Below the pieces are notes generated by a model that saw nothing but the letters and a program-made list of their open reading frames with translations, ran no database searches and was not told where the DNA came from. From Verrucomicrobiota bacterium (GTDB lineage: Bacteria > Verrucomicrobiota > Verrucomicrobiia > Limisphaerales > UBA9464), in NCBI GenBank assembly GCA_043788645.1, contig JAYVTS010000253.1:1-46815 (forward strand): a stretch of 46,815 nucleotides of DNA. Direction: 5' to 3'. This document shows, in pieces, positions 8,462-27,148 of this stretch. Numbering within the stretch: the stretch's first letter is position 1; each line of letters starts with the position of its first letter. The position numbers and the translations under genes were made by a program.

Positions 8462-8574
8462 ACGGCAGCGGATTTCTCAACGCTTCGAGCCTGCCTCGTT
8501 CGAAGGCCTGAATAGGTTCGCAGCTCAAGCGCTCGGGCTCGACACCTCGCTAAACCCGTGCAACAACTTTGACC

Positions 8575-11061
8575 ATGCTTCGTCGGATCCTTCTTCAATG
8601 CACCCATTTGGGTCTGCTCCTATTGGGCGTTGTTAACGCTGCGGATCGGCTGGTGGAATGGTCGACTGCGACCGCCCGATTTGAATTGGGCGTCGATGGC
8701 GCGTTTCGTTCACTCATCCTGGTTGGCGCCCCTCAAAACTACTTAGCGCCCCAACAACCGTCGCCGTTGCTGAGCGTACGTTTGGCGGGAAAATGGTCTA
8801 CGCCGGATCAAGCCACTTGGGACGCGATGCGACGAGAAATTACTCTCCATTTTCGAACGGCCCACGCGACCGCCTCCCTCCGAGCCATCGCCAAACCCTC
8901 GCACCTTACCTTCGAAGTCGTGGAAATTCAACCAGCGGAATCGGTGGAACTCGTGCTCTGGGGCCCCTACTCGACGACGGTGCGTGGGATCATCGGAGAA
9001 ATTGTCGGCGTGGTCCGCGACGGCGACGTCGCTATTGGAATTCAAGCGCTCAATCCCAAAACGCTCGGCGGCTACCCGGTTAATGAAAATGACATTGATC
9101 ACGAATACGGCGCCGATGATACCGGAATCTACCGTCCGCCGTTCACCGCCGAACTCCAACACGGACAATCCTTCCGCGGCGATACCGCCCAAGGCACAGC
9201 GTTTGGCAGCATCCTACAGGCCTATACACGCAATCGGACTACCGGGCGAGTGCTCCCCAATTGGGGCCATGAAAAATACCGAGTATTGCCCCTGCCAGAC
9301 GGCGGACTCGTGGGTAGTCGCATTGCACTCTTTGCCGTTCCGGAAGCTCAGGCCCTCGCGACGATTGGTTCGATCGAGGTCGCCGAGGGGTTGCCGCATC
9401 CATTGATCGACGGTGTTTGGGCCAAGCAATCACCCGGGGCGACGGCTTCCTATCTCATTGTCGATTTTGGCGAGGCGACCATTGATCGCGCGATTGAGAT
9501 GACGAGGCGCGCAGGCTTGAAGTATCTCTATCATAGTTCGCCGTTTGCTACCTGGGGTCATTTCCAACTCAAAACCAATCTGTTTCCAAATGGTTGGGCT
9601 GGATTCAGACGCTGTGCCGATCAAGCCCGGACCGCTGGCATCCGCTTGGGATTTCATACCCTCTCCAATTTTATCACCCCCAACGATGGCTACGTGACAC
9701 CGCAACCAGATCCGCGCCTGGCGGTTATCGGATCCAGCGAACTCGCCAGCGATGTCGACGCCACGACGACCGAAATTCCGGTGAGCGCATCGGAATATTT
9801 TCAAAAGAAATCCGCGCTGAACACCATCCGACTCCAATCAGAGCTCGTGCGCTTTGAGGGCGTCTCCACTGAAACGCCGTGGCGTCTGTTGCACTGCGAA
9901 CGCGGAGCCTGGGGAACAAAGCCCGCCGATCACCCTCGCGGAACGCCGGTCGACCTACTTTTGGACCACGACTACAAAGTGTTTTTGACCGATGCCAGTC
10001 TTGCTCAAGAGGTCGCCCGCCAAATTGCACGATTCTGCAATGAGACCGGGGCACAACAACTCTCTTTCGATGGCCTGGAAGGCAACTGGTCCACCGGCTA
10101 CGGACAATATGGTCGCACGCTTTTCACGCAGGCGTGGTACCAAACACTGGCACCGGCGCTGCAAGGACAGATCATTAACGACGCGAGCAATCCCGGTCAT
10201 TTCAATTGGCATATTAATACCCGCATGAACTGGGGCGAACCGTGGTATGCCGGATTCCGAGAAAGCCAAACCCTCTACCGCTTCAAAAACCAGGTCCTCT
10301 TTGAACGTAACTTGATGCCGCATATGCTCGGCTGGTTTGCGCTGCGACCGGATACCTGCCTGGAAGATGCCGAATGGCTACTCGCCCGCGCGGCCGGATT
10401 CGACGCCGGTTTCACCCTGGCCACGAGTTTGGCCAGTACGGCTCAGCTGGCTGCCGACCCGGCCTCGGCGGATACCGCGCGCAAATTCGGCGCCACGGCC
10501 GCGATTCTCTCGACGATTGCAGAGTGGGAAACGGCACGCATGAGCGGCGCATTTCCACCGGAGCTCAAACTGAGACTTCGCGACAATCTGCGGGAGTTTC
10601 ACCTTCAACCCGTCCAAAAACTGGAATGGGATCTCCGCGAAGTCGCGGTGACTCGCCATACGTACCTTGCCGGCGCAGCGGACACCGCTGAAATTCCCCT
10701 CACCAACCACTTCGCCGCCCAGCCGCTGCAACTGATCGTTCGTTCCCAATCAAAAACCCCCATCGGTGAACTCACCGTGGAATTGAACGGAGCCACGGTG
10801 CTCGTCCAACCGGGCGGGTCTCTCCCGGCGACGGGCAGCCTGCGACTAACGGGTGATTCCGACGTGGTCCTGGCCGATAACACCTGGAAAGAGCTGGCTC
10901 GGAGGGAACTTTCGCCCCAACTTACGCGTCTTCCGGTCGGAACGTCGGTCCTTCGGATTCGTTCCGCCTTGCCGGAGGGAGACAAACTGCAACTTGAATT
11001 CCGGGTGATGGCTCCGGCGACGCGCATTCGTAGCCAGCGTCCAATGTCTTCTGCTCCGTAA
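8575..11061 (+). CDS. Secreted multidomain hypothetical protein, probable unclassified glycoside hydrolase (TIM barrel)
   Basis: Signal peptide; GIRLGFHTLSNF and QLSFDGLEG resemble barrel strands with acidic catalytic candidates; beta-rich N- and C-terminal regions. Confidence 0.6.
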   Translation: MLRRILLQCTHLGLLLLGVVNAADRLVEWSTATARFELGVDGAFRSLILVGAPQNYLAPQQPSPLLSVRLAGKWSTPDQATWDAMRREITLHFRTAHATASLRAIAKPSHLTFEVVEIQPAESVELVLWGPYSTTVRGIIGEIVGVVRDGDVAIGIQALNPKTLGGYPVNENDIDHEYGADDTGIYRPPFTAELQHGQSFRGDTAQGTAFGSILQAYTRNRTTGRVLPNWGHEKYRVLPLPDGGLVGSRIALFAVPEAQALATIGSIEVAEGLPHPLIDGVWAKQSPGATASYLIVDFGEATIDRAIEMTRRAGLKYLYHSSPFATWGHFQLKTNLFPNGWAGFRRCADQARTAGIRLGFHTLSNFITPNDGYVTPQPDPRLAVIGSSELASDVDATTTEIPVSASEYFQKKSALNTIRLQSELVRFEGVSTETPWRLLHCERGAWGTKPADHPRGTPVDLLLDHDYKVFLTDASLAQEVARQIARFCNETGAQQLSFDGLEGNWSTGYGQYGRTLFTQAWYQTLAPALQGQIINDASNPGHFNWHINTRMNWGEPWYAGFRESQTLYRFKNQVLFERNLMPHMLGWFALRPDTCLEDAEWLLARAAGFDAGFTLATSLASTAQLAADPASADTARKFGATAAILSTIAEWETARMSGAFPPELKLRLRDNLREFHLQPVQKLEWDLREVAVTRHTYLAGAADTAEIPLTNHFAAQPLQLIVRSQSKTPIGELTVELNGATVLVQPGGSLPATGSLRLTGDSDVVLADNTWKELARRELSPQLTRLPVGTSVLRIRSALPEGDKLQLEFRVMAPATRIRSQRPMSSAP

Positions 11062-11084
11062 CGTAATGATTCGATGAGAGTACG

Positions 11085-11395
11085 GATGGAACTGTCGGGT
11101 CGTAATGAAAAAAAACCTCATCTCATGAGCCTCGAAATGTCTAGAACCGGTAAGCCGAGCCGCTACCGTCAGCGCGGAGGCTGCGACGCAGTGTCATCAA
11201 ATCGTCAACTCGGCGCTGTTGATTCCGGCGGGGTCAGCGAGGACGACACGACAGGACGAACCACCAAGATAAGCTGGGAGAGCTCCCCGCGCGGGACGGC
11301 AGCGTCTCAACTTCCGGTCCAAGGCGGCAACTCCGCCAAGGCCGGAGCGGCGAGGGGAGCAGTCGGAGTCTTCCGTAGTAGCGATGAACCGGCGA
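11085..11395 (+). mobile_element. Degenerate group II intron ribozyme fragment (part of domain I, domain II, start of domain III); no RT/IEP
   Basis: Ordered motifs TGAGCCTCGAAA (11126), GCCGAG..GGAGGC, TCCGGCGGGGTC (11224), CTGGGAGAGC (11274), AGTCGGAG..CGTAGTAGCGATGAA (11361-11388); pairings CTGTCG/CGACAG and GCTCCCC/GGGGAGC. Confidence 0.6.
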
Positions 11396-11588
11396 ATATT
11401 CGGGTGCAAAGCCTAAGATTTTGGGCATAGCGCCGTCGTGTCACCGCGCAGCGCTCTCCGCCTGGCGGAAGCACACGTCCCCGAGTCATGAGGATTTGGT
11501 TCGGGTACACACCGAACACTCGGACCTGTTGCGGCGGTGTTTGATTGAGTCCTTGAGCGGGTCTTGGAACGTCCCACTCCGACGCCAA

Positions 11589-11726
11589 GTGACGGGTATC
11601 GCGACCGATACCTATGCCGAGAAAGTGGTGGTTGGCCGAGCCGATGAATTCAAGAGCTACGCCGAGGTGGAGGCGGAAGCGGACAAACGCATTGCGACGG
11701 CGTTGGCGGCCGACGTCGGGAAATAG
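11589..11726 (+). pseudogene. Possible C-terminal fragment of an unidentified gene
   Basis: VTGIATDTYAEKVVVGRADEFKSYAEVEAEADKRIATALAADVGK* is protein-like with GC3-rich codons, unlike the upstream part of the ORF. Confidence 0.35.
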
Positions 11727-11902
11727 AAATTGCTGATCGAGATGAATTATTTCGTGAGGTTCCGCAGATAAGGAACGCCTCAGAGATCGTGTTGCGCAGA
11801 CTTTCGATGGCTATGCATCGTTGTGGACGGAAATTTTCCCTTCGAGACACTTCTCGCGTAGCTCGGCCTTGATCAAGGGCGCATCGGTTATAGGTTTCTT
11901 CT

Positions 11903-12171
11903 ATGAAATCGATCCCTTGGCCCTCCCAGAAGACCTTCTGGGCGAGGTTCGGGAAACCGCTGCATTGACGGGGCTCTCGATGGCAGCTGCGATGCGCCAA
12001 AGTATGAAACTTGGCTTGCCACAGTTGCGCGAGCAACTGGCGCTCAAGCCAACCCTGAAACCGTTTTCAGCCGCCGAAACAAAGCGGGCCTTCGGTCCGG
12101 ACCCGGAAGGTGACTCCATTGCTTCGCGTTTGGGGCGCCGACGCCAACCTGAACCGGAAGTCGAGCGATGA
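11903..12171 (+). pseudogene. Ribbon-helix-helix-like antitoxin, apparently frameshifted near its start
   Basis: PLALPEDLLGEVRETAALTGLSMAAAMRQSMKLGL fits an RHH pattern; ATG at 11903 is out of frame with the body (in-frame TTG at 11917 is an alternative start); ATGA overlap with next ORF. Confidence 0.55.
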
Positions 12172-12290
12172 AGGCCTGGGAGATCTGGACCTGCCAACCC
12201 GAATTGAAACAACGCCGCGGGATCGTGACTCCGGAACGTCGACGTCAGATCATCGCGACGATTCAGCGCGCTCATGGTTGGGTAGACTAG
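12168..12290 (+). pseudogene. Internally deleted PemK/MazF-like toxin remnant (40 aa)
   Basis: MKAWEIWTCQP|ELKQRRGIVTPERRRQIIATIQRAHGWVD*: resembles MazF N-terminal strand joined directly to the C-terminal helix; coupled to antitoxin. Confidence 0.55.
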
Positions 12291-12336
12291 CCCTGGCCTT
12301 GCCCGATCTGTCACGGGTCATTTTGACTCTCCCGCG

Positions 12337-12427
12337 CTCCGCGAAGACTCGGCAAAGGCGCTGGCCGGTCCGAAATCCCTCGGACCGGGTGCCGCCTCGG
12401 CACCCACGCGCGACGCCGGGAGCGCGT
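12337..12427. repeat. GC-rich palindromic REP-like repeat, family A copy 1
   Basis: Hairpins CCGGTCCGA..TCGGACCGG and GGGTGCCG..CGGCACCC; reverse complement aligns with 28247-28360. Confidence 0.8.
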
Positions 12428-12446
12428 GCGAAATCCAAACCCAGTT

Positions 12447-13697
12447 TCAAGGTTCACCGACCGTGCTCGCCGCTTCGCGCTTCAGGCGCTGCCGTTCCGC
12501 AGCTTTCGCAAATGGAAAATACACGGCCATGGCAATCAAGATGGAGCAGGCACCCCAAACGGCCGCCTTCCAATCGCCTCCCGTGACCAGGTAGTGCCCA
12601 ATGATCGGAGGCGTGGTCCAGGGTATATTGACAAACGGTTTCGGAATAACCTGCCATTGCATCAACAGATAGCTGCCCGTCGTCAGAATCAGCGCATTAA
12701 TAATATATGGCACCATGAAAATCGGGTTTAGGACAATCGGAAACCCGAAAAATATAGGCTCATTAATTTGAAAAATCTGGGTGACTAATGAAAGTCGACT
12801 GACTTTGCGAAACCCAGGCTCACGCGAATTGAGCATGATCAGCGCCAATGCAATGGTAGCACCCGTTCCACCGACATTGACAAAAGTCGTGAAGAAACCC
12901 AGGGCGGTGATATAGGGCAACGGTTGGCCTTGAACCGTCGCCTCTACATTGGCGGCTAGATATTGAAGAAAGATCGGCGCAACGATGGCATCTAAGGTGT
13001 TGTCGCCATTGATTCCGACGGACCAAAGCAACGTCACCAGAAAGGCATAACTCAGAATGCCCGGGAGCGTGTTCAAAGCTGAAACCAGGGGCTGAAAGGC
13101 GACTTGGACCCCGTGATTCAGATCGATTCCCAGCACAAACCGCAGCAGCCAAAACACCACCATCAAAAAACAAAGGGGACTGAGCGAGGCAAACGAATCA
13201 TAGACCACCCGCGGAACGCTTGGAGGAAGTTTGATCACAAAATCGTGATCGGTGAAAAATTTCCGGACCCGAACCGAAATGAGCGAAATGAGGATCGCGA
13301 CGAATAATCCTTGGGAGCCCAGACTCTCCATATTGAAAGTCAGATCTTCCACTTTGAGCGAGATCATCAAAAAAACAGCGGTAGCCATGCCGGCGCTGAC
13401 GCTGGCTTCCTGCTTGAGTTGCCGCCCTAAATCGTAGCTGACCGAGTAGCAGACAAAAACCGCCAGGAGCCCGAAGCTAGCCGCGACTGGAACTTTCAAG
13501 AGTTGCTGGTACGGCGCCACGATTTTGTCCCAACCCGTCACGGGTAAATAGGCTAAAATCATGAAAAGCCCCCCAATGATGGTCAGGGGTACCACTGAAA
13601 CCACCCCTGCGCGAATGGCCGACAAATAGGTATTTTCGCTGAGAACCGTTAGGACCGGCACCAGGCGGCGATTGAGAAATCCAACGGTGGCGCTCAC
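12447..13697 (-). CDS. PTS cellobiose/chitobiose (Lac/Chb family) EIIC permease, orphan
   Basis: AIRAG, IKLPPSVP, GGTGAT, INEPIFFGFPIVLNP and PWTTPPII motifs; many hydrophobic TM segments. Confidence 0.92.
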   Translation of the reverse strand: MSATVGFLNRRLVPVLTVLSENTYLSAIRAGVVSVVPLTIIGGLFMILAYLPVTGWDKIVAPYQQLLKVPVAASFGLLAVFVCYSVSYDLGRQLKQEASVSAGMATAVFLMISLKVEDLTFNMESLGSQGLFVAILISLISVRVRKFFTDHDFVIKLPPSVPRVVYDSFASLSPLCFLMVVFWLLRFVLGIDLNHGVQVAFQPLVSALNTLPGILSYAFLVTLLWSVGINGDNTLDAIVAPIFLQYLAANVEATVQGQPLPYITALGFFTTFVNVGGTGATIALALIMLNSREPGFRKVSRLSLVTQIFQINEPIFFGFPIVLNPIFMVPYIINALILTTGSYLLMQWQVIPKPFVNIPWTTPPIIGHYLVTGGDWKAAVWGACSILIAMAVYFPFAKAAERQRLKREAASTVGEP

Positions 13698-13728
13698 CGG
13701 ACCTCCAGCCTGGATGAGTTAATGGAGT

Positions 13729-14964
13729 TCATACAACGGTGCTCAATGACGCTCGATTCTCGTACACTTTTTCAAACGCATCGGCAATGTCGTCCATATC
13801 AACTTTCTTTCCCAGAAACAGGGAATGTTCGAGCCACAGCCCTTGCGATCGGCATATGAGGTCACTATTGGGCGCCTTTGTGCCCCGGAAATCCAACCGA
13901 GCCGAGGCGTGCGGGAGATAGGGACCGAAGGCCTTGTTTCGGAACAAGGGCTGTTGGCATAGAGAAATCGCGTATCCGCCGGAGCACGGAATCCCTTCGG
14001 CTTGGAGGGCCCGAAGGACTTGATCCCGAGGCGCCCCAAAAATCTCGCTCTCCAGTCGCATCATAAACAGGTGATAACTGTGTCGGGTACAATCGCTCGG
14101 GCGCGCTTGCGGGTGAATTCCGGGCAACTTCCGCAATCGCGTTGCGAGATATTGGCCGTTTCGGTCCCGACGTTTCGTTTGGGTCTCTAGCCGTTCAAGC
14201 TGGCAATTGAGCAGGGCGCCCTGAAATTCTCCCAACCGATTGTTGCCTGAAATCACATGGTGCTCGTACCACACGCCGGTCGGGATTCGGCCGCAGTTAT
14301 GGATGGACCGACAGGATTCTGCCAAGGAATCGTCGTTGGTGATCAAGATCCCACCTTCGCCGCAAGTCAGGTTTTTGCTCGATTGAAAGGAAAAGGAACC
14401 GAGCTGCCCGAGCGAGCCAGCGGGACGATCTTGATACTTGGCCCCGTGCGCATGAGCGGCATCTTCGATAACGGTGAGTTGTTTTTTTTTTGCCAGAACC
14501 AGGAGTTCCTGCATGGCGGCCGGTTGTCCCGCAAAATGAACGGGGATCATCGCTCGCGTTCGAGGAGTGATTGCCGCAGCGACCGCCTTTGGATCTAAGT
14601 TAAAGGTCTGGTGATCGATATCCACGAAGACCGGAATCGCGTTGGCTTCTACGACCGCCGAAGCCGTCGAAAGAAACGTATAAGCAGGGACAATCACCTC
14701 GTCTTCGGACCGGATCCCTGCCGCCAGCAAGGCAATCCGGAGCGAGACGGTTCCGTTGACGATGGCAATTCCGTGCTGGCAGCCGTGTGCCAGGGCGAAG
14801 CGGCGTTCAAATTTTTCGACCTCGGTGCCCTGAAGGCGACCCCATTGGCCACTGTGCAAGGTGCGCAGGAGAGCTTGTTCTTCCGCACGACCAAAAATAG
14901 GCCAAGTGACAAAGGGCCGATTGCGAATCGGTTTTCCTCCGTGAAGCGCGAGCTGAAGTGGCAT
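13729..14964 (-). CDS. DegT/DnrJ/EryC1/StrS PLP aminotransferase (RifK/inosose aminotransferase-like)
   Basis: LALHGGKP..WP N-terminus, IEDAAHAHG, FSFQSSKNLTCGEGG (PLP Lys), GNNRLGEFQ. Confidence 0.92.
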   Translation of the reverse strand: MPLQLALHGGKPIRNRPFVTWPIFGRAEEQALLRTLHSGQWGRLQGTEVEKFERRFALAHGCQHGIAIVNGTVSLRIALLAAGIRSEDEVIVPAYTFLSTASAVVEANAIPVFVDIDHQTFNLDPKAVAAAITPRTRAMIPVHFAGQPAAMQELLVLAKKKQLTVIEDAAHAHGAKYQDRPAGSLGQLGSFSFQSSKNLTCGEGGILITNDDSLAESCRSIHNCGRIPTGVWYEHHVISGNNRLGEFQGALLNCQLERLETQTKRRDRNGQYLATRLRKLPGIHPQARPSDCTRHSYHLFMMRLESEIFGAPRDQVLRALQAEGIPCSGGYAISLCQQPLFRNKAFGPYLPHASARLDFRGTKAPNSDLICRSQGLWLEHSLFLGKKVDMDDIADAFEKVYENRASLSTVV

Positions 14965-15013
14965 GGGTTGAGTGAATGAGTTAACAATCGAATCGTGCTT
15001 CGGAGGTTCGGGA

Positions 15014-15643
15014 CTAAGTCCTCAGATCTTTCCCGAGATAGGTGCATCCGTCGGTAGCGGACCCCACTCGAACCAGTTCGCGAAAGCCCAACCGAAGATA
15101 GAATCCGAGGGCGACAGAATTCTGAGCACTGACGCCCAGGTGCGCTCCGGGCGAGCCTCGTTGGCGAAGTAAAGCCATCACTTGTCCCAAGAGGCGTCGG
15201 CCGAATCCGCGACCTTGCGCTCGATTGAGCAAGTCGATGTGCAGATGCGAGGGAAAGAGGTCGTGTGGTTCCGGTTGATAATAGTCTGGATGATGATACC
15301 CATCGTGTACCTGTTGGACCCGTGTCCATTGCTGGGGATCGCCTTGAGGCGCGGGAAATCGGCGACAGAGATCAGCGCGCCATTCGGTCTCGTAACGGGC
15401 GTAAAAACTCTTAGAATCCAACGCACCCAAGGCATAGCCGCAAATGCCCTGGGGATCTTCCAGGATCAAGCTGAACTCGGGTTCATACGCGAGATAAGGC
15501 CCGACGAAGATTCGACCGAGAGCATCCGGATCTTCCTCATAGAAGGGTTGGCCATCCTGGCCATAGTTCCCGGTTTTAAGGCAGACGTGGTAAGCTCCGG
15601 GTGCATCACCAGGGCGAGCAGGGCGAATGACGCAGTCCTTCAC
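15014..15643 (-). CDS. GNAT N-acetyltransferase resembling the O-GlcNAcase C-terminal acetyltransferase-like domain
   Basis: VCLKTG..G.D, VGPYL, HLHIDLLNRAQGRGFG (AcCoA loop), GVSAQNSVALGFYLRLGF; GTG start overlaps GH84 TGA. Confidence 0.88.
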   Translation of the reverse strand: MKDCVIRPARPGDAPGAYHVCLKTGNYGQDGQPFYEEDPDALGRIFVGPYLAYEPEFSLILEDPQGICGYALGALDSKSFYARYETEWRADLCRRFPAPQGDPQQWTRVQQVHDGYHHPDYYQPEPHDLFPSHLHIDLLNRAQGRGFGRRLLGQVMALLRQRGSPGAHLGVSAQNSVALGFYLRLGFRELVRVGSATDGCTYLGKDLRT

Positions 15644-17073
15644 GAGCAGGGGAGGGTTGAGGAAGTGCGAGTATTGAGTTTGAGGGACGGGGTTGGCGCC
15701 CAACGCAGCGGGATTGGAGGTGCTGGAACAAAGCTTTCATCGCTTTGCGGCAGCAGAAGTTGTTGCAACCTGGCGACGAAACTGCCGCGATAAGTCCCGG
15801 GAAGGTGAAAGTCTGAGCGACCCAGCTTGTCGCGATTGGCTGGATCCGCCACCAGGGTGACGTAGCGAATGAGCAAGTCGAGTTCCTCACGCAGTTCCCA
15901 GAGTCGGCGACTTAATGCGTAAAAGAGTGGGCGCTGACGCAACTCGGAGAGGCGGGCGCAAAAATCCCTCAAGCGGATGGCTAAATGTCGAAATTTTACC
16001 GCGCTCTCACCCCATTCAGAAGGGGGACGGGAGAGCAACTCACGGGCTTGTTTGTAGAGGTCGATGGCTAGCGGACCATCCGTATAGGGAAGGTAGAAAC
16101 AATCCCCCAAAAGAATGAGATCCTCCAGCGCGACGGATTGGGTAGCCGTGGCAAATTCCTGATACCAGTCCTGCATGGCGGTTGCGTAGGCGGCCCGGGC
16201 ATCCCAGGAACCTTGGCATTTGACGAAGTCGCCTAAAGTTCGGATGGGCACGTAGTTCAGGTGAAATTCTGTGTTTGGATTCAGTAGCAGTCCGCTCAGT
16301 TCATGCTTGAGTTCCACGGGACGTCCGGCATAGGGCCCGCAGTAAAAACGACGGCCGTCGTAGTCATTGGCGTGGAGATTATCCCAAAGGAACGGCTTTC
16401 GACGTAGGATTTTTTGCAATCCCTGAATGTGCGCGACGGTAATTTGTTCCGAGATAATTTCCGGCCCCGTCCAGCAGACGTCGATTTCAGGCAGGAGTTC
16501 TCGTCCCAGGGTTTCAAGGTAGTCCGCGCCACCGAGTTGCCGTTCCGCCATGCGACCGCAATAGGGCGTTGGGCAGAAAAAAAATCGAGCGTGGGGTTGC
16601 CGTTCGCGGACCCAGCGAAAGAGGGTATTGGTTACGTAACACTGGGCTGAAGCGAGAGAACCCCACCGTTGACGATCTTCGGGATCCATCCGGTCCGGAA
16701 TATCGTCGAAGAGCAGAAAAAAATGGGGACAACCCAGTTCGAGAAGTTGAGCGAGCCGGTTTTGCAGCTGATCCAAATCCGGCTCGTGGCTGTAGCGGAG
16801 GTCCAGACCTGGGCCTAGGGCGTAGATGAATTCGATGCCTCGGTTATGGCAGGAAGTGATGAGTTTCCGGAGCGACTCGGCCTCTGGGGGTGAGTACCGT
16901 TCACGCCAGAGGGCTCGATGCTTCAGATCATCTTTGGGCGCGTAGCAGTAGGTATTCAATCCCGAACGGACCATCCAATCCAGCAATTCTCGGCGCTCGA
17001 TTTGGCTCCAAGGCGGCCCGTAGAAGCCTTCGATAACCCCGGCAAGAAAACTCGAAACGGTGTGTGATCCCAT
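15640..17073 (-). CDS. GH84 beta-N-acetylglucosaminidase (O-GlcNAcase), cytoplasmic
   Basis: GVIEGFYGPPW, YAPKDDLKHR..WRE.Y, catalytic LLFDDI, CPTPY, WTG, LWDNLHANDYD; no signal peptide. Confidence 0.95.
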   Translation of the reverse strand: MGSHTVSSFLAGVIEGFYGPPWSQIERRELLDWMVRSGLNTYCYAPKDDLKHRALWRERYSPPEAESLRKLITSCHNRGIEFIYALGPGLDLRYSHEPDLDQLQNRLAQLLELGCPHFFLLFDDIPDRMDPEDRQRWGSLASAQCYVTNTLFRWVRERQPHARFFFCPTPYCGRMAERQLGGADYLETLGRELLPEIDVCWTGPEIISEQITVAHIQGLQKILRRKPFLWDNLHANDYDGRRFYCGPYAGRPVELKHELSGLLLNPNTEFHLNYVPIRTLGDFVKCQGSWDARAAYATAMQDWYQEFATATQSVALEDLILLGDCFYLPYTDGPLAIDLYKQARELLSRPPSEWGESAVKFRHLAIRLRDFCARLSELRQRPLFYALSRRLWELREELDLLIRYVTLVADPANRDKLGRSDFHLPGTYRGSFVARLQQLLLPQSDESFVPAPPIPLRWAPTPSLKLNTRTSSTLPCS

Positions 17074-17389
17074 GCGTGCGAGAACTCTCTTCGATCAAGC
17101 GCCGACGTTCGTCAATTCCGGCGCGAAACCCTCAAGCCCATGCCCTGAATCCATGTTTCTCAACCCGCAGGGTTCTATTCGCAGACTCTCCTCGGCTAAA
17201 TGAACCGCATTTTCACAAATCCCACCGATCCGATAATACGGTGTCTCCAAAAATATTTTGACCCTTTCTGATTCCTGTTTTTCTTGAAACGGCTCTGAAC
17301 TGGGCGCTCCGGCGGCCCTTGATTCGGGCGACGTGCCAGCTTCAGAATTTCTGCTGGATTTTCAGCGGAGCACTCGTAACCGTAAGCAA

Positions 17390-18766
17390 ATGGCGCATTC
17401 ATTCACGAGAAGAACCCGCTGGCAGGCTGCGCCTCCGGGCTTCGTTGGGCGCCTCGCCTCTCTGTCGGCGGTCCTCCTCGGAATCGTCTTAAACGCCGCC
17501 GAGCCAGCCGTCATCAATCGGGATAATGGGCTACGGCCAGCGGTCCCGAAAATTGAAGCGGAAACGGCTGCACTCAAGGAAGACGCCGTCGAAACGGCAG
17601 TCCAACTCGCGAAGGCTTATCCCGAAGATGCCCTTGCCTACGCCTTACTCGGAGCCGCGTACTACAACGTTGGCCGATCCGGAGAAGCCACCAAACATCT
17701 GCAAAAATGCCTCGCCCTGAATCCGAACCAGGCCGATGCGTATGAAATCTTGGCGCGCGTTGCCTACGAAAAGGGGAACCTGGAAGAATCCGGACAGCTC
17801 TGTCGCGAGGCCTTGAAGCGAGGCCCGGCTAACCCGGACGTTCTCAACCAACTCGGTCGCGCCTTGATGGATCTTGGCAAAACAGACGAGGCTATTCAGG
17901 GACTGCAGCAAGCCGCGGGAATCCCCAATGCGCCCAGTCAAAGCTTTTACTGGCTAGGCCAAGCCTATCTTCAGGCCGGGAATTTTGCGCAAGGCAAAAT
18001 CAATTTCCAAAAAGCCATTGCGATTCTTCCTGACCACACTCAGGCCTATTTTGCACTTTATCGAGCCTGCCAGGCTTTGGGACAGACTGAAGAAGCTCAA
18101 CGCCATCGTGAACAGTTCGTCCAGCTGGAGGCGATTGATCGAAATTCCCTGACCGAGCAGAGCGCTCAGATGGATACCCTGACCGGGTTGCCGCAAGTTC
18201 AGTCGACCGTCGCGAGGACCTTCTTCGGCGCCGCCCAGGTTTACCGCCTTCACCAACAACCCGCGAAGGCAGCCGAATTGTTTCAAAAAGCCGCAAGCTT
18301 AGACACCGGCAACGGGAGCTATCGAGGGGCGTTGGAATCGCATTATGTTCAAAGCAAAATGTTACCGGAAGGAGTGGCCGCCTTCGAAAAGTTGTCGGCC
18401 GGACAGCCGACCAATCACCTCAACCAGTTTTTCCTCGGGAGATTGCACGCCCGGCTCGACCACCTGGAGGCCGCCGTAAGTGCTTTCCGGAAAGTGCAAG
18501 AACTGGCTCCGAATTGGGCGGAGGGCTACCGTGCGCTGGCCGATCTGGAAGTGCGGAACAACCGAAATCTTTCCGAAGCCCTCACCCTGGCTCGGAAAGC
18601 GGCCGAATTGGAACCGGCAGCGCCCCACTTCTATCTCCTGGCCGTTGCCTGCGTTAAGAACCATGATCATTCCGGTGCCTTGGAAGCAATCAACCGAGCC
18701 TTGGCTCTGGCTCCAGGAGAGAAACGGTATCGAGAAATCCTCGAACAAATCAGCCAGTCTCCTTAA
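17390..18766 (+). CDS. Secreted TPR protein
   Basis: Signal-like N-terminus; many TPR repeats (AYALLGAAYY, ALNPNQADAY, LAPNWAEGY). Confidence 0.88.
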   Translation: MAHSFTRRTRWQAAPPGFVGRLASLSAVLLGIVLNAAEPAVINRDNGLRPAVPKIEAETAALKEDAVETAVQLAKAYPEDALAYALLGAAYYNVGRSGEATKHLQKCLALNPNQADAYEILARVAYEKGNLEESGQLCREALKRGPANPDVLNQLGRALMDLGKTDEAIQGLQQAAGIPNAPSQSFYWLGQAYLQAGNFAQGKINFQKAIAILPDHTQAYFALYRACQALGQTEEAQRHREQFVQLEAIDRNSLTEQSAQMDTLTGLPQVQSTVARTFFGAAQVYRLHQQPAKAAELFQKAASLDTGNGSYRGALESHYVQSKMLPEGVAAFEKLSAGQPTNHLNQFFLGRLHARLDHLEAAVSAFRKVQELAPNWAEGYRALADLEVRNNRNLSEALTLARKAAELEPAAPHFYLLAVACVKNHDHSGALEAINRALALAPGEKRYREILEQISQSP

Positions 18767-18839: not shown

Positions 18840-20582
18840 ATGGCCAACAGAAACACCTCGCACTCCCTACGAACGATCCGTGGTGTTTTTTTTTCAATTC
18901 TACCTTGTTTTAGGCTCGTCCTCGCGCTGTGCCTCGCTGTCAATCGTACGACGGCTGCTGATTCAAAAGGCACCATTCAACTCCGTGATGTGACTCGATC
19001 TTCGGGTATCACCTTCGTCCACACCGACGGAAGTTCTGGGCGTCATTACATCGTCGAGACCGTCGCCAGCGGGCTGGCGCTCTTCGACTACAATGGAGAC
19101 GGACTGATTGATATTTATTTTCTGAATGGTCGTCCGCTCGCAGATACAAATGCTCCGGCCACCCGTAATGCGCTTTACCGAAATGATGGGAACTGGCATT
19201 TTACAGACGTCACCGAACAGGCCGGAGTCGAAGGCACCGGCTATGGTTTGGGGGTTTGCGTAGGTGACTATAATAATGATGGTCACCCAGACCTGTACGT
19301 CAACAATTTTGGACGGAATGTCCTTTATCGGAACAACGGGAACGGCACCTTTACTGACGTGACCCGGCAAGTCGGCCTGGAACTCGACCATCATGTGGGT
19401 GGCGGAGCCGCTTTCTTGGATATCGATGGTGATGGAAAACTGGACTTGTTCGTAGCGAACTACGTGGACTTCAATTTCGAGAACCACCGGGTTTCCTACA
19501 TGAATGGCCTACCGGCCTACGTTGGCCCGCTGCACTATCCGGCCACGGCGGGCGTTTTGTATCACAACAATGGCGATGGCACCTTTACTGACGTCAGTGT
19601 TGCGTCGGGCATTGCGGCACACCTGGGAGCAGGAATGGGGGTGATTTGTGCCGACTATGACCATGACGGGGATACCGACATCATCGTGGGTAACGATATG
19701 CGCCCAAATTTCGTTTTTCAGAACGACGGCAAAGGGCACTTCAAGGAAGTCGGCGGGCTTTTGGGATTGGCGTACGCCGCACTCGGCCACGTCCACGGCA
19801 CGATGGGAGTGGAGTGCGCTGATTGGAACAACGACGGCTGGTTGGATTTTTATATGACCGCCTATCAGCGGCAACTTTCGACCCTTTATCAAAGCAAGGG
19901 TGGTGCCTATTTTGACGACGTTACCCGCCAAACCGGCGCGGGTACGGGAACCTATCCCAACGTCACCTGGGGCACCGGCATGGTCGACTTTGATAACGAC
20001 GGATACCGCGACATTTTTATCGCCTGCGGACACCTCATCGACAACGTCGAAAAGTTCGACGACACCACTGGCTATGCCGAGCGGAACATTCTTCTGCGGA
20101 ACAATACTCAAGGCAAGTTCGTCGACGTTTCAGATCAGGCGGGCGACGGATTATTGCCCAAGCTGAGCAGTCGGGGAGCCGCTTTTGATGATTTGGACAA
20201 TGATGGACGCGTCGACGTCGTCGTCCTCAATTCGAGGCGGGAACCCACCCTATTACGAAACGTTTCCAGCGCGACGAATCATTGGCTCCAAGTCCAGCTG
20301 CGGGGAACCAAATCAAACCGGGACGGCATCGGTGCGCAGGTCCGGGTTCGGGCGGGTGACTTCACTTCAATGGACGAAGTTCATAGCGGCCGTAGTTATC
20401 AGAGTGACTTCGGAAAACGGCTCCACTTTGGCCTCGGCCAGCGCAGCAAAATCGATGAAATCCAGGTGAATTGGATCGGCGGCGGAGTCGATATCATTCG
20501 CAATGTGAGCGTTGATCGGCGGGTGTTGATCGTAGAAGGCAGCGGCGTTGTGACGGGGACCGAAGGGACCCCACCACGATGA
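18840..20582 (+). CDS. CRTAC1/ASPIC-UnbV FG-GAP repeat protein (paralog 1)
   Basis: Repeated DYNxDGxxD motifs; NRDGIGAQV..SGRSYQS..LHFGLG ASPIC/UnbV C-terminus. Confidence 0.92.
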   Translation: MANRNTSHSLRTIRGVFFSILPCFRLVLALCLAVNRTTAADSKGTIQLRDVTRSSGITFVHTDGSSGRHYIVETVASGLALFDYNGDGLIDIYFLNGRPLADTNAPATRNALYRNDGNWHFTDVTEQAGVEGTGYGLGVCVGDYNNDGHPDLYVNNFGRNVLYRNNGNGTFTDVTRQVGLELDHHVGGGAAFLDIDGDGKLDLFVANYVDFNFENHRVSYMNGLPAYVGPLHYPATAGVLYHNNGDGTFTDVSVASGIAAHLGAGMGVICADYDHDGDTDIIVGNDMRPNFVFQNDGKGHFKEVGGLLGLAYAALGHVHGTMGVECADWNNDGWLDFYMTAYQRQLSTLYQSKGGAYFDDVTRQTGAGTGTYPNVTWGTGMVDFDNDGYRDIFIACGHLIDNVEKFDDTTGYAERNILLRNNTQGKFVDVSDQAGDGLLPKLSSRGAAFDDLDNDGRVDVVVLNSRREPTLLRNVSSATNHWLQVQLRGTKSNRDGIGAQVRVRAGDFTSMDEVHSGRSYQSDFGKRLHFGLGQRSKIDEIQVNWIGGGVDIIRNVSVDRRVLIVEGSGVVTGTEGTPPR

Positions 20583-22300
20583 ACTCGGGATTACGTCGCG
20601 GCCCCGGTGGGCGAACCATCAGGAGCCCTCTAAAGGGTCCGCTCGCGTGGCTTGGGGTTTGGTTTTCGTTCATCGGTACTCCGCTGCTTCTGAGGGCTGA
20701 GCTGGTCTCCCCGATTCTCCTTCGTGACGCCACGGCTCAAACAGGAATCCATTTTGTCCACACTGACGGCGGTTCCGGTCGGCGCTATATCGTCGAAAGC
20801 GTGGCCAGCGGTTTGGCCCTCTTCGACTATAACGGCGACGGCCTGATCGATATCTATTTCCTGAACGGAACGGCCCTTCCCGGTTCTCCGGCCGGACCGC
20901 GCCCTCGGAGTGCCCTCTATCGGAATGAGGGTCACATGAAGTTCACCGACGTGACGGCGCCAGCGGGCGTCGGCGGAACGGGCTTTGCGCTGGGGGTCTG
21001 TATCGGCGACTACAACAACGACGGCAACCCGGATATCTACGTCAACAATTTCGGCCCCAATGTCCTGTATCGAAATAATGGAGATGGCACATTTACCGAT
21101 GTCACTCAGGCAGCCGGAGTTGCCAATGGAAGCAAGTTAGGTGCGGGGGCGAGTTTTCTCGATATCGATGGCGATGGCTACCTGGATCTATTTGTGGCCG
21201 ATTACTGTGATTTCACGTTCGCTAAGCATCAGAATCGTTTTATCAACGGCCATCAAGCCTATAGCGGTCCGGCGATTTACGGTCCCGTGTCGGCCACGCT
21301 TTTCCATAATAACCGCGACGGTACCTTTACGGATATCAGTCGGGAATCAGGGATTGCCGCCCATGCCGGCACCGGGATGGGCGTGGTCTGTGCCGATATC
21401 GACAATGACGGGGACACCGACATCATTGTCGGCAACGATGGCATGGCCAATTTTGTCTGGCGGAATGACGGCCAGGGACATTTCGAGGAGATCGGACTTT
21501 TCTCCGGACTGGCCTACGACCGAAACGGCGTCGGGTTAGGAACTATGGGAGTGGAATGCGGTGACTACGATAACGATGGTCGCCTGGATTTCTATATGAC
21601 CCATTATCAAAAGCAGTGGGGAATTCTATACCGTAACTTGGGGAAAAATCTGTTCGAGGATGTGACTCATCTGACGGGTGCTGGCGCCGGAACGTACAAT
21701 CAGGTGACTTGGGGGGTCGGTCTGGTCGATTTTGATAACAACGGTGATCGCGACCTCTTCATCGCCTGCGGACACATCCAAGACAATGTTGGACTCTGGG
21801 ATGACACGACCAGCTACGAGGCCCGCAACCTATTGCTAGAGAATAGGGGACACGGAAAGTTTCAGGATGTTTCCGCGCGCTCTGGTGATGGAATGGCGTT
21901 GAAACGCAGTGGTCGAGGCGTTGCTTTCGACGATCTGGATAACGACGGACGGATCGATGTGGTCGTCCTGAACTCCCGCCGGGAACCCACCATTCTCCAT
22001 AATGAAAGCCCGGGGCAGAATCATTGGCTGGGCGTGAAATTGAAGGGAACTAGCACCAACCGGGACGGAATCGGCGCGCGCATCAAGGTCGTCTCCGATG
22101 ACTTGACGCAGATTGACGAGGTTCACAGTGGCCGGAGCTATCAAAGCAGTTACGGGATGTATCCGCATTTTGGTCTAGGGAAACGCAAGCACATCGAAAG
22201 GATTGAAGTTCGCTGGGTTGGGGGAGGGACCAATCTGGTAGAGAATATCGATGCGGACCGAGTCGTCACGATTACCGAAAGCAAGCCCAATCCGAAATGA
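20579..22300 (+). CDS. CRTAC1/ASPIC-UnbV FG-GAP repeat protein (paralog 2)
   Basis: Same architecture, colinear with upstream paralog; ATGA overlap. Confidence 0.92.
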   Translation: MNSGLRRGPGGRTIRSPLKGPLAWLGVWFSFIGTPLLLRAELVSPILLRDATAQTGIHFVHTDGGSGRRYIVESVASGLALFDYNGDGLIDIYFLNGTALPGSPAGPRPRSALYRNEGHMKFTDVTAPAGVGGTGFALGVCIGDYNNDGNPDIYVNNFGPNVLYRNNGDGTFTDVTQAAGVANGSKLGAGASFLDIDGDGYLDLFVADYCDFTFAKHQNRFINGHQAYSGPAIYGPVSATLFHNNRDGTFTDISRESGIAAHAGTGMGVVCADIDNDGDTDIIVGNDGMANFVWRNDGQGHFEEIGLFSGLAYDRNGVGLGTMGVECGDYDNDGRLDFYMTHYQKQWGILYRNLGKNLFEDVTHLTGAGAGTYNQVTWGVGLVDFDNNGDRDLFIACGHIQDNVGLWDDTTSYEARNLLLENRGHGKFQDVSARSGDGMALKRSGRGVAFDDLDNDGRIDVVVLNSRREPTILHNESPGQNHWLGVKLKGTSTNRDGIGARIKVVSDDLTQIDEVHSGRSYQSSYGMYPHFGLGKRKHIERIEVRWVGGGTNLVENIDADRVVTITESKPNPK

Positions 22301-22383
22301 CGGCGGGGTTGCGTCGGGAAAGGGCGAGAGAGTTTGTCTCACCGGAAAAACGAACTAGGATTTCTGATCAGTCAGCTCCTTTT

Positions 22384-22755
22384 TTGAAACTGTTATTTGT
22401 CTGTTCTCGAAATCAAAAACGCAGTCTCACGGCGGAACAGTGTTTCCGGGGTGATCAGAGATTTGTCGTGCGTAGTGCCGGTACCGAACCCAGCGCCCGA
22501 CGGCGGGTGACTCCCGGTGATCTAGGGTGGGCCGATGCCGTTTTGGTGATGGAGAAGAAACACGCCGCTTATCTCCGTGAACGTTTCCCGGAGGAAATGG
22601 GGGGCAAGCACGTCGTCATTATGGCCATTCCAGACGAATACGACTGCGGTGATCCCGACCTCATCACGATGTTGAAAAGCCGTGTGGAAGAGGAATTCGG
22701 GGCGACGACTGAATCCACCGTCGGCGAAAATCAAGACGGGTCACCCGACGTTTAG
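22384..22755 (+). CDS. Low-molecular-weight protein tyrosine phosphatase-like protein
   Basis: LLFVCSRNQKRSLTAE (CX5R), VRSAGT, WADAVLVME, IPDEY; start uncertain (22297 or TTG 22384). Confidence 0.85.
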   Translation: MKLLFVCSRNQKRSLTAEQCFRGDQRFVVRSAGTEPSARRRVTPGDLGWADAVLVMEKKHAAYLRERFPEEMGGKHVVIMAIPDEYDCGDPDLITMLKSRVEEEFGATTESTVGENQDGSPDV

Positions 22756-24539: not shown

Positions 24540-25571
24540 TCATTTTGTGACCGGATTGACCAAGGCAACGGTCCCATCTTGACCACCCACTATGAGGGTT
24601 CTGTCGTTTCGGGACCACAGGACGGCGGTGAGGGGCGCCGCGAACTGGCTTTCCCCCAGGGGCGCCGGATACTTAGCGTTCCACCAGAGCAATCGTCCAT
24701 CCTGGCCACCGCTAGCCAGTAAGTGTCCCTCGGATTGATAGGCCAGAGCGGCAATTCGAGCGGTGTGCCCCACCAGAATTTGCGGGGTTGTCCCCGAGGG
24801 GCCTTCTCCGCTGAAATCCCACACTAGGATCTGCTGGTCGCCACCGGTCGCCAAATATTTTCCGGAATAGTGCCACGCCAGCTCTCGCACTTTGAACGGG
24901 TAACCACTCATCGCTAACTCATCGCCCTCATGAAATGGCAGGGGCCAAATCTGCACGCTCTTGTCTTGAGTTCCGGCCACGACCCACCGTTGGTCCGGCG
25001 ACCATCCTAACGAAACCAAACTTGTTTTCCAGGGGAGCAATTGCGTCGGTTGGCCCGTTGTGGTTTCATACAATTGCACCCCGCCGTAGCAAGCGATTCC
25101 CAAGACTTGGCCATCCGTTCGCCAACGGAGTCCGGTCACGGTACTCGCGTGGTTTTTAAACGTGTTTTTCCCGTCGAAGTCGGGGGTGAATAGGGTGACG
25201 ATTCGACCTGCGGCAACGGCGAGCCAAGCACCGGTGGGCGACCATTCGAGTTGTTCCACCCAGACGGTTCCGAGGGAAATTTGGCGCAATAATTTGCCGG
25301 TCGCGGGGTCCCAGAATTTCACCTGGCCGTCCGCGCCGCTACTTGCAATCAGGTTTTTTTTTGGATGCCACGCCACGCGAAATCCGCCGCTCGGGTGGGC
25401 GGCTAGCTCCTGGGATATCCGGCCGGTGGCAGCCTCGACGATCACCAGTTTTCCCTCCGTGGTGAGCGCGGCAATTTGCGCAGAATCCGGAGATCCGGTC
25501 AGGGCCATGATCGGTTCACCGAGGTGAAGGAACCATTCGGCGGGACGAGCGGGTTCAGAGGAAACAAGCAT
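24540..25571 (-). CDS. WD40-repeat beta-propeller protein
   Basis: Repeated H..LASGG.DG...W motifs; 10 bp downstream of COG0523 gene. Confidence 0.9.
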   Translation of the reverse strand: MLVSSEPARPAEWFLHLGEPIMALTGSPDSAQIAALTTEGKLVIVEAATGRISQELAAHPSGGFRVAWHPKKNLIASSGADGQVKFWDPATGKLLRQISLGTVWVEQLEWSPTGAWLAVAAGRIVTLFTPDFDGKNTFKNHASTVTGLRWRTDGQVLGIACYGGVQLYETTTGQPTQLLPWKTSLVSLGWSPDQRWVVAGTQDKSVQIWPLPFHEGDELAMSGYPFKVRELAWHYSGKYLATGGDQQILVWDFSGEGPSGTTPQILVGHTARIAALAYQSEGHLLASGGQDGRLLWWNAKYPAPLGESQFAAPLTAVLWSRNDRTLIVGGQDGTVALVNPVTK

Positions 25572-25581
25572 GACCTGGAGT

Positions 25582-27126
25582 CTACGCCAAACACCGGCGG
25601 AACCCTGCGTTCAATGCTTCCCGGTCAAGGTTGCGTCCAATGAACACGAGTTGATTTTTACGTTCGTCGGGGGATTTCCAGGCTCGATCCGGCTTGCCCT
25701 CGAAAAGCATGTGAACGCCTTGGAAAACAAACCGGTTTTCTTGCCCTTTGATATTGAGGATGCCCTTCATGCGGAAGATGTCTTGGCCCTTTGTCTGGAG
25801 GAGTTCACTCAGCCAAGAATTAAGTTTCTTCGCGTCCAACGGGCGAAGTTCTTCGATCCCAACACTCCCCACGGTTTCGTCGTGTTGATGATCATGGACG
25901 TGGCCGCCGTGATCGTGGGTGTGATTCGGAGTGATCTCTTGGCCGTCTTTCACCAATTTTCCAGAGAATTCCGCCAGCCCGTGTTGGGTAAATAGAGCGT
26001 AATTTCCATGAGCTGGAATCGTGACATTGAAACGGGTGATATCTTCGCTCAGCATGAGTTTGTACAGCTTTTTCCCCGGTTTGAGTTCACCGCCCTGGCG
26101 TACTGCGGTCGCGGGATAGCTGAATAATGCGGTCGCTTCATCCTCCGCATGATGAAGTGCGTCATGCAATCCACCGTGACATTCCTCACCGTGCGCAGCC
26201 TCGTGCCCCGGTTCGTGTTCGTGCGTATGGTCATGCCCGCATTCATGATCTGCTTCGTTTCCAGCGTGGTCCTGATCGTGATGATCACAACCGTGGTTTG
26301 AGTCTTGGTGCTCTCCTGCCTTCCCCTGGGCTGGTGGGTGAGCATGGGTTCCGAGCGAAAGTAAAACGACGCCCATGAAAGGATCCGGCCCCGGTTCCAG
26401 CACGAGCGAGTAGGGGCCATCGTCTAAGTGATAGGCTCCACTCCATTCAAAGGGTAAGTCCTTCTCGAGAAAATCGCCGTCGAGTGTCAGCTTATGATCC
26501 AAATCGAACGCGTGCAGGTTGATCACCTGATCGACGGAAAGGTTGGACTGAAACGTTCGATGGATCTTCGCGACGGGGTTGAGACCACGAATTCGTTTTT
26601 CGAGCGCGTTGAGTTCATCGCCGGTGACTAAGTCCGTCTTATTGAGAAGGATGCGATCAGCAAAAGCCACCTGTTCCTTGGCTTCGGGCGCGTCGTCGAT
26701 GTGCAAGACGATGTGTTTTGAGTCGACCAGAGTGACGATTCCATCAAGGCGAAACGCTTCCTTCAATTCTGGGTCACTGAAGAACGTTTGCGCTACGGGG
26801 CCTGGATCAGCCAAGCCGGTGGTTTCGATGAGGATATAGTCAAAGCGATCTTTGCGTTTGAGGAGTTGACCCAGAATTCGAATGAGATCGCCTCGTACGG
26901 TGCAGCACAGGCAACCGTTATTCATTTCGAAAATTTCTTCATCAGCCTTGATCACGAGTTCGTTGTCGATCCCGATTTCGCCGAATTCATTTTCGATGAC
27001 GGCGATCCGTTTGCCGTGATGGGCGGTGAGAATGTGGTTGAGCAACGTGGTTTTGCCGGCACCCAAAAAACCAGTGAGCACGGTCACTGGAATGCGACGG
27101 TCTGGAGCAGGAACGGAAGCAGCCAT
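25582..27126 (-). CDS. COG0523/CobW G3E GTPase metallochaperone with His-rich insert
   Basis: [32 protein letters not shown], CobW_C (RMKG..QGVH..LVFIGR); long His-rich tracts. Confidence 0.95.
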
Positions 27127-27148
27127 ATCAAATCAAGGGGTAGTGGAA

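Follow-up and report, generated by a model that had tools for sequence, protein, structure and literature searches.

What is the acetyltransferase-like half of O-GlcNAcase (OGA) for? From the cloning of the enzyme onward, no clear answer has been at hand: in animals the domain has no catalytic activity, and the bacterial models, OgpAT and SsAT, come without a known substrate. The question is taken up here with a stretch of DNA from a member of the Verrucomicrobiota (order Limisphaerales, UBA9464). This stretch of 46,815 nucleotides, here called the window, is one entire contig (JAYVTS010000253.1) of an assembly (GCA_043788645.1) that comprises 5.48 Mb in 523 contigs and is 90% complete. Its minus strand carries four closely packed genes that run in one direction on the map of open reading frames (ORFs): an OGA-like GH84 β-N-acetylglucosaminidase, an OGA-type GNAT, a DegT-family aminotransferase, and the membrane component EIIC of a phosphotransferase system (PTS). 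An earlier note, made from the sequence alone, had described the first two as a split bacterial counterpart of metazoan OGA. The best reading of the evidence is that the operon serves the cytoplasmic uptake and processing of a β-linked amino-sugar glycoside and is not a protein O-GlcNAc switch. For the core of this reading, in which GNAT and GH84 share a pathway and the acceptor of the GNAT is an amino sugar or an amino-sugar glycoside, we put the probability somewhat below one half, at roughly 0.45.

The four genes of the operon

The first gene (15640 to 17073, minus strand) has an ATG start and encodes a GH84 protein of 477 residues, composed of a TIM barrel and a C-terminal helical stalk. 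Residues 12 to 311 match the Pfam domain PF07555 (E 1.1e-78). Among solved structures, human OGA constructs score best (8e-100, for 9ba8, to 3e-94), followed by OgOGA of Oceanicola granulosus (2xsa, E 3.4e-84 across residues 10 to 439) and the Thermobaculum-type 5diy (1e-54), whereas the match to the secreted BT_4395/NagJ enzymes is far weaker (E about 1e-36). Thus, the protein does not cluster with the secreted hyaluronidase-type enzymes, a placement shared by the GH84 tree discussed below. Identity to animal OGAs is about 45-50% over the barrel, and a second aligned stretch, residues 311 to 454, corresponds to the stalk of human OGA (hOGA; E about 6e-07). In the HMMER alignment, the catalytic Asp-Asp pair within FDDIP lines up with FDDID of hOGA, and the sugar-binding motifs KDD, WDN, and NDYD align as well. 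The catalytic pair, the stalk, and the grouping with OGA and OgOGA together place the protein in the OGA-like cytoplasmic clade of GH84. The start of the Pfam domain at residue 12 would, judged by eye, leave no room for a signal peptide, which is consistent with a cytoplasmic enzyme. A profile search of the window's own genome finds this GH84 only.

The second gene (15014 to 15643, minus strand) begins where the first ends. At the junction, ctcGTGAagg, the GH84 stop codon TGA (15642-15640) and the GNAT start codon GTG (first base 15643) share the 4 nucleotides GTGA (15640 to 15643). The longest reading of the GNAT ORF begins at a TTG at 15703, but the GTG at 15643 is taken as the start because the homologues open with M-x-D-x-x-IRPARPGD; it yields a protein of 209 residues. 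As the earlier note had it, the two halves are adjacent genes in the same order as the animal domains, with an overlap through which their translation is probably coupled, and every element it named is in its place.

The GNAT matches PF00583 (E 4e-07), and its translation contains NRAQGRGFGRRL, in which the acetyl-CoA loop QGRGFG occupies residues 143 to 148. Its solved relatives are OgpAT (3zj0, E 4.5e-42), SsAT of Streptomyces sviceus (4bmh, E 8.6e-34), a 211-residue chain named "O-GlcNAcase" (6r45, E 4.6e-26), and residues 715 to 914 of human OGA (E 4e-20), and the next GNAT after this OGA-type set appears only at E 1.8e-3. The protein is therefore not grouped with unrelated GNATs; this specific relationship, together with an intact P-loop (Q/R-x-x-G-x-G/A), assigns it to the subfamily of OgpAT, SsAT, and the pHAT domain of OGA. 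Over 35 sequences, H133, H135, I136, D137, G146, G148, N175, and Y182 are invariant, as is the motif PSHLHIDL. The H-x-H-I-D sequence and the tyrosine are common to SsAT and the window GNAT, H135 and D137 aligning with SsAT His187 and Asp189 and Y182 with Tyr234, although SsAT carries an N-terminal extension of about 55 residues that the window GNAT does not have. In SsAT, His187 and Asp189 touch an unexplained ligand density, Tyr234 hydrogen-bonds the sulfur of acetyl-CoA, and the authors argue for a small polar acceptor in a small-molecule pocket (He et al. 2014, PMC3919268). OgpAT also binds acetyl-CoA (PMC3814719, PMC12494797). Acetyl-CoA binding or transfer is shown for OgpAT and SsAT only (PMC3814719, PMC3919268). 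With all acetyl-CoA and candidate catalytic residues kept, the window GNAT looks active. A prediction of a GH84-GNAT complex, run with two alignments, returned a score of 0.00, which makes no call either way.

The third gene, 49 bp further on (13729 to 14964, minus strand), encodes a DegT/DnrJ/EryC1-family aminotransferase of 411 residues dependent on pyridoxal phosphate (PLP). It matches PF01041 (E 5.9e-100) and contains SFQSSK, which we take to be the PLP-lysine motif. The nearest solved relative is AHBA synthase (1b9h, E 3.7e-73), and the next are 8gyh (1.3e-63) and 5w70 (2.3e-61), 2-deoxy-scyllo-inosose or scyllo-inositol aminotransferases. None of the NCBIfam equivalogs searched (ArnB, PseC, LegC, WecE, and others) reaches its cut-off, the best score being 224 bits against 631.

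The fourth gene follows after 31 bp (12447 to 13697, minus strand) and encodes a PTS EIIC membrane component of the lactose/cellobiose/chitobiose family (416 residues). It matches PF02378 (E 1.2e-44) and passes the cut-off of TIGR00410, the lacE subfamily, with 295 bits against 236. Its sole solved relative, matched over the full length, is the ChbC-type cellobiose-specific IIC 3qnq (E 1e-60). HPr and enzyme I are present in the window's own genome, where neither a Lac-type EIIB (PF02302) nor an EIIA (PF02255) gave a match; the EIIC is thus an "orphan." In a sample of 121 genomes of the window's order, EIIB occurs in 5, and in 2 of the 41 that have the GNAT. As in the chb chitobiose PTS of E. 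coli and Bacillus, an EIIC of this family is linked to a cytoplasmic enzyme that cleaves hexosaminides. Unlike that system, no ChbB- or ChbA-type EIIB or EIIA was found, and the hydrolase is a GH84 in place of ChbF, a GH4 phospho-glycosidase. For the latter reason, a phosphorylated substrate is not expected in the window operon.

Upstream of the GH84 gene lies an intergenic region (17074 to 17332) that is shared with a divergent TPR gene (17333-18766, plus strand) and presumably holds the operon promoter. A scan of positions 12000-17500 for promoter and terminator consensus sequences gave counts equal to shuffle expectation.

Conservation, fusions, and relationship to animal OGA

The GNAT has 2576 matches in a collection clustered at 90%. 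The window's own protein heads the best 120 of these, and the remaining 119 share 71-81% identity with it; where names are attached, most are Verrucomicrobia or Pedosphaera, and Tepidisphaeraceae and Paceibacterota appear once each. Among the 50%-representatives there are 2280 matches, with 143 at E<=1e-30. When one genome per species was scanned by pattern, with a 12-row GNAT alignment as query, 594 loci were confirmed, and the synteny counts given here rest on 80 of these 594. Most of the 80 are from Verrucomicrobiota and Planctomycetota, and a few are labelled Acidobacteriota and four Deinococcota. Some labels of metagenome-assembled genomes, namely Akkermansia muciniphila, Bifidobacteriaceae, and Acidobacteriota, look unreliable for Verrucomicrobia-type loci of about 70-75% identity (L009, L014, L018, L031, L032, L063). 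GH84, DegT, and EIIC neighbours were counted by tblastn; three ORF clusters (numbers 4, 5, and 7) were discarded as antisense artefacts of greedy ORF calling.

Of the 72 loci with enough upstream DNA, 57 have a GH84 gene immediately before the GNAT, upstream and on the same strand; in 3 more it lies elsewhere in the locus. For an EIIC downstream on the same strand, the figures are 39 of 61 and, again, 3 more. Where both flanks are available (55 loci), GH84, DegT, and EIIC occur together in 15 and GH84 with EIIC in another 15; GH84 with DegT and DegT with EIIC are found in 2 each, EIIC by itself in 4, and none of the three in 6. Four planctomycete loci (L059, L061, L065, L077) carry, upstream of the GH84, a DegT that is less closely related (41-48% identity), and their EIIC is divergent. 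Of 59 related loci with a GH84 upstream, 24 share the 4-nucleotide overlap of stop and start, and, since the synteny is also kept across phyla, the gene arrangement is not a matter of chance. The genetic linkage is conserved over at least two phyla, Verrucomicrobiota and Planctomycetota. Within the sample of the window's order, GNAT and GH84 are each present in 41 of the 121 genomes, and both in 37 (lists compared by eye), whereas a phylum-wide sample has the GNAT in only 3 of 151 genomes. The module is therefore common in the order and not in the phylum sample.

Departures from this layout were also seen. Four loci (L007, L011, L024, L027) have an EIIC after the GNAT but no GH84 anywhere in the locus, and in L011 the gene upstream is nusB; GNAT and EIIC can thus form a two-gene unit. 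In two others, a type I phosphodiesterase/nucleotide pyrophosphatase (PF01663; L025:10597-12234 and L018:5219-6763) lies between GNAT and DegT, an insertion that could point to a nucleotide-sugar or phospho-sugar intermediate. Further neighbours, in single or few loci, are a stand-alone SIS_2, a BadF/BcrAD-type kinase-like gene, Fe-ADH_2 with an MFS gene, GFO/IDH/MocA, and ThuA.

The GNAT also occurs fused to other domains. When 30 long GNAT-containing representatives were compared with Pfam, the partner was GH84 in 10, a GKRP/MurQ-like double SIS in 4, ROK in 3 (plus one that also has GKRP), Fe-ADH_2 in 2, and SIS_2, LD-carboxypeptidase, and DHHA1 in 1 each; 6 had no partner domain and 2 no Pfam match whatever. 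In a second scan, of 60 long matches from a word-indexed search, 52 have PF07555, 2 are GKRP-like, 1 has an enolase-superfamily domain, and 2 are GNAT-DegT fusions (P0279, P0321), of which P0279, with the GNAT N-terminal, mirrors the gene order. The domains joined to the GNAT are those of sugar or sugar-phosphate enzymes. Two clusters of fused GH84-GNAT proteins hold 171 and 105 members, and those with names come from Luteitalea and Verrucomicrobiae. The window genes are indeed separate, as the word "split" in the earlier note implies, but this is one of two bacterial states, and the fused state is common. The view that the fused forms are all bacterial was dropped: one of the ten GH84 fusions of the first scan, P0164, is from the protist Thecamonas trahens, and the nearby metagenomic P0221, P0322, and P0156 may be eukaryotic too.

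A pair of this kind was already on record. The earlier note mentioned it for O. granulosus with an unresolved substrate, and the OgOGA-OgpAT pair (2xsa/2xsb, 3zj0) has indeed been published, with its function called unknown (Rao et al. 2013, PMC3814719). It shares with the window the order of GH84 and then OGA-type GNAT, which is the domain order of animal OGA, and OgpAT, like the window GNAT, keeps the acetyl-CoA-binding residues (PMC3814719). O. granulosus belongs to another phylum than the window, whose relatives are labelled Verrucomicrobiota. For the window pair, the GTGA overlap and the downstream DegT and orphan Lac/Cel EIIC are documented; the comparison with O. granulosus covered the two proteins.

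Both halves of the metazoan enzyme (OGA/MGEA5; human 5m7r, Trichoplax 9qep) are homologous to the window pair in the same order, with E about 1e-94 for barrel and stalk and 4e-20 for the pHAT. The animal enzyme is a single chain that contains a long disordered insert, and its pHAT no longer binds acetyl-CoA (PMC3814719; PMC12494797), whereas the window has two genes and an intact motif. The relationship was followed in two quick trees, one of 72 GNAT rows and one of 37 GH84 rows rooted on 4 secreted-type GH84s of the same order; both came with compositional warnings, and no direction of change is concluded from them. Support is given as the Shimodaira-Hasegawa-like approximate likelihood-ratio test (SH-aLRT). 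In the GNAT tree, the eight metazoan pHAT domains form one clade (98), and split and fused bacterial forms are intermixed, such that the GH84-fusion label needs 9 changes. In the GH84 tree, the window protein falls in a clade of all GNAT-linked bacterial forms and eukaryotic OGAs (100), within which the metazoans (100) stand beside three fused forms of unknown origin (94, unstarred).

The acetyl-CoA loop is present in each of the 64 non-metazoan rows (63 bacterial or metagenomic, and Thecamonas), which all show, with minor variants, P-[SA]-H-x-H-I-D-L...R-A-Q-G-x-G-x-G-R and N..A..FY; vertebrate OGAs are without both motifs, and cnidarian OGAs are intermediate. The statement of the earlier note that the GNAT keeps a QGRGFG loop that animal OGA lacks thus agrees with the wider alignment as regards the vertebrates. 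The Thecamonas homologue P0164 (688 residues, GH84 and GNAT) has the bacterial-type PSHLHIDI...GQSQGQG and N..A..FY, and the OGA of the coral Montipora keeps the motifs in part (PRAQDLGLGKR). Because Thecamonas keeps the motifs, Montipora partly keeps them, and vertebrates lack them, acetyl-CoA binding may have been lost within animals.

What the pair may act on

The favoured reading, amino-sugar processing, can be set out in three steps. The ChbC-like EIIC would bring in a disaccharide-sized β-glycoside, probably as a facilitator, because no cognate EIIA or EIIB was found. The OGA-type GNAT would then N-acetylate a free sugar amine, either that of an existing glucosamine (GlcN)-type residue or one put in by the DegT aminotransferase, and the OGA-like GH84 would cleave the resulting β-N-acetylhexosaminide by substrate-assisted catalysis. 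In GH84 enzymes, the nucleophile is the substrate's own 2-acetamido group; an acetyltransferase that makes an acetamido group from a free amine would therefore be a natural partner for such an enzyme. That the chemistry is one of sugars is indicated by the partners in linkage and fusion: a chitobiose/cellobiose permease, a sugar or cyclitol aminotransferase, kinases, and SIS domains. The earlier note had argued from the aminotransferase and the EIIC to a small-molecule substrate, an argument that the conserved EIIC/DegT synteny and the domain fusions strengthen. The specific order, acetylation before cleavage, is tentative: possible, if on the doubtful side.

Known systems that acetylate and then cleave resemble the operon in proposed function. 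Their hydrolases are of families GH3 or GH89 (NAGLU is a GH89 enzyme), their transferases are tandem GNAT or membrane proteins, and no homology of either to the window parts is detectable. In fungal RmNag, a GH3 β-N-acetylglucosaminidase is fused to a GlcN N-acetyltransferase that is required to cleave (GlcN)2, hydrolase and transferase standing in the same N-to-C order as the window genes (PMC4680927). Bacterial GlcN N-acetyltransferases acetylate the terminal GlcN of peptidoglycan fragments, which a β-N-acetylglucosaminidase then cuts (PMC4680927). In RmNag, in Clostridium acetobutylicum GlmA with its β-N-acetylglucosaminidase NagZ, and in HGSNAT with NAGLU, an acetamido-requiring hydrolase is paired with an acetyl-CoA-dependent GlcN N-acetyltransferase. 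HGSNAT follows the same logic in lysosomal heparan sulfate breakdown (PMC11357348). For GH84-GNAT pairs, no acetylate-then-cleave proposal was found in literature searches of open-access text. A bolder form of the idea is that the OGA-type GNAT is a glucosaminide N-acetyltransferase that primes GH84 substrates, that the animal pHAT is a fossil of an ancient acetylate-then-cleave pair of amino-sugar enzymes, and that the orphan EIIC has lost PTS phosphorylation, the imported amino sugar being trapped by N-acetylation (a group translocation by acetylation). In this full form the idea is rather unlikely.

Several observations weigh against amino-sugar processing as set out here. The acceptor is still hypothetical, and the analogy to the known GlcN N-acetyltransferases (GlmA, the RmNag C-terminal region) would be functional only, as the GNAT appears not to be homologous to them. 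No glucosamine N-acetyltransferase or GH3 β-N-acetylglucosaminidase appears by name among the 39 PDB matches listed at E<=1 for the GNAT query. The DegT does not sit easily in the scheme: the closest enzymes of solved structure use keto-cyclitols or UDP-3-keto-glucose, and only 22 of 61 loci have a DegT orthologue (>60% identity) on the downstream side of the GNAT. In 11 of the 55 loci with both flanks, there is a GH84 and neither an EIIC nor a DegT near. Downstream catabolism of N-acetylglucosamine (GlcNAc) is not evident in the window's own genome, which gave no match to NagA at E<=1e-30 and no GH18 chitinase. In the order sample, NagA exceeds its curated cut-off in 14 of 121 genomes, of which 1 (G204) has the GNAT and 13 do not; a weaker NagA-like paralogue is present in 34 of the 41 GNAT-positive and 48 of the 80 GNAT-negative genomes. 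In addition, the reason for crystallising OgOGA was the resemblance of its peptide-binding groove to the groove of human OGA (PMC3814719).

This last point leads to the alternative that the pair removes O-GlcNAc or GlcNAc from bacterial proteins, the GH84 stripping β-GlcNAc from proteins or glycopeptides while the GNAT either regulates the hydrolase or has a protein or peptide as its acceptor. The close identity of the GH84 to animal OGAs, including the stalk, and the hOGA-like groove of OgOGA favour it, and Thermobaculum terrenum has both an active OGA and an OGT (PMC4683255). Animal OGA, however, is paired with the writer OGT. A genome search for a GT41 OGT (PF13844), which the earlier note had proposed, gave 0 matches in the window's own genome, with controls responding in 2 of 14 genomes; at 90% completeness such an absence, like those of EIIA, EIIB, NagA, and GH18, is not proof. 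O-GlcNAc cycling, which calls for a GT41 OGT in the same genome, is thus not indicated here. Within the order, GT41 is found in 7 of 121 genomes, 6 of the 41 with the GNAT (G151, G214, G227, G231, G237, G239) and 1 of the 80 without it (G242), in a sample in which kin are not independent. This enrichment leans toward a link with O-GlcNAc-type glycosylation and is a further point against amino-sugar processing. Nevertheless, 35 of the 41 GNAT-positive genomes gave no GT41 match, and where GT41 occurs it is always on a contig other than that of the pair. Moreover, the neighbours that are conserved are a transporter and an aminotransferase for sugars, the GNAT is fused to sugar-phosphate enzymes, and peptides clash with the SsAT acceptor site in modelling (PMC3919268). 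Taken together, removal of O-GlcNAc from proteins is distinctly unlikely.

If EIIC and GH84 simply import and hydrolyse chitobiose or another GlcNAc-glycoside, the GNAT would be left with a side role, the acetylation of non-metabolisable analogues for detoxification or export. Such a role has a textbook precedent in LacA, the acetyltransferase of unclear role in the lac operon, and the ChbC-type relative of the EIIC and the complete active site of the GH84 fit this account. The GNAT, however, is the most conserved member of the operon, is either fused to the GH84 or probably coupled to it in translation, and also occurs with EIIC alone and in fusions to kinases and SIS domains. Its conservation, coupling, and fusions are more than a dispensable side activity would suggest. 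That neither a curated NagA nor a GH18 was found in the window's own genome also speaks against simple catabolism, and we regard this account as improbable.

A third possibility is the modification, biosynthesis, or resistance chemistry of an aminoglycoside- or aminocyclitol-like small molecule, in which the DegT would aminate a keto-cyclitol or keto-sugar, the GNAT would acetylate the new amine in the manner of an aminoglycoside acetyltransferase, and the GH84 would trim a GlcNAc unit. Aminoglycoside acetyltransferases are GNATs, the closest solved relatives of the DegT are AHBA synthase and aminotransferases of 2-deoxy-scyllo-inosose and scyllo-inositol, and GNAT-DegT fusions, Fe-ADH_2 fusions, and Fe-ADH_2 neighbours exist. 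Nevertheless, no other biosynthetic gene, such as a cyclase or glycosyltransferase, recurs in the 80 loci, the DegT is not downstream in 39 of 61 loci, and the importer-type EIIC argues for uptake, which makes this possibility very unlikely. A GlcNAc-sensing regulatory acetyltransferase like fungal Ngs1, in which a glycosidase-like domain senses GlcNAc and the GNAT acetylates proteins, has a parallel architecture of hexosaminidase-like and GNAT parts (PMC5063960), but it is barely plausible for an operon whose GH84 keeps all catalytic residues and whose context is metabolic, with no conserved DNA-binding or regulatory partner.

Surroundings of the operon and significance

Downstream of the operon, on the opposite strand, lie an 830-residue ORF and three small ORFs (8569-11061 and 11074-12171, plus strand) with no Pfam match at E<=1e-4. 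On the other side, after the TPR gene, two tandem paralogous FG-GAP/ASPIC-UnbV proteins of 580 and 573 residues are encoded at 18840-22300 (plus strand), followed by a small ORF (22297-22755, plus strand) resembling a low-molecular-weight phosphatase. The FG-GAP/ASPIC-UnbV pair is divergent from the GH84 operon and is not conserved beside it in related loci. Further on (24540-27126, minus strand), a WD40 β-propeller gene adjoins a long CobW/CobW_C GTPase of 514 residues. The GC content is 0.484 at 26001-28000, compared with about 0.56-0.59 elsewhere in the window.

The GH84-GNAT pair of O. granulosus was already published; what is added here are conserved partners and a concrete hypothesis for the acetyltransferase half. 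The pair is a widespread and strongly conserved module, present in about a third of the sampled genomes of the order and also in Planctomycetota, and its partners, a chitobiose-type permease, a sugar aminotransferase, and fusions to sugar-phosphate enzymes, narrow the acceptor to amino sugars. If the order of acetylation and then cleavage is correct, the joint occurrence of a hexosaminidase and an acetyltransferase in organisms from bacteria to animals would have an explanation, and the pair would be a fourth independent case of such logic. If the enzymes act on glycoproteins instead, abundant bacteria of soil and freshwater would become candidates for bacterial O-GlcNAc-type signalling.

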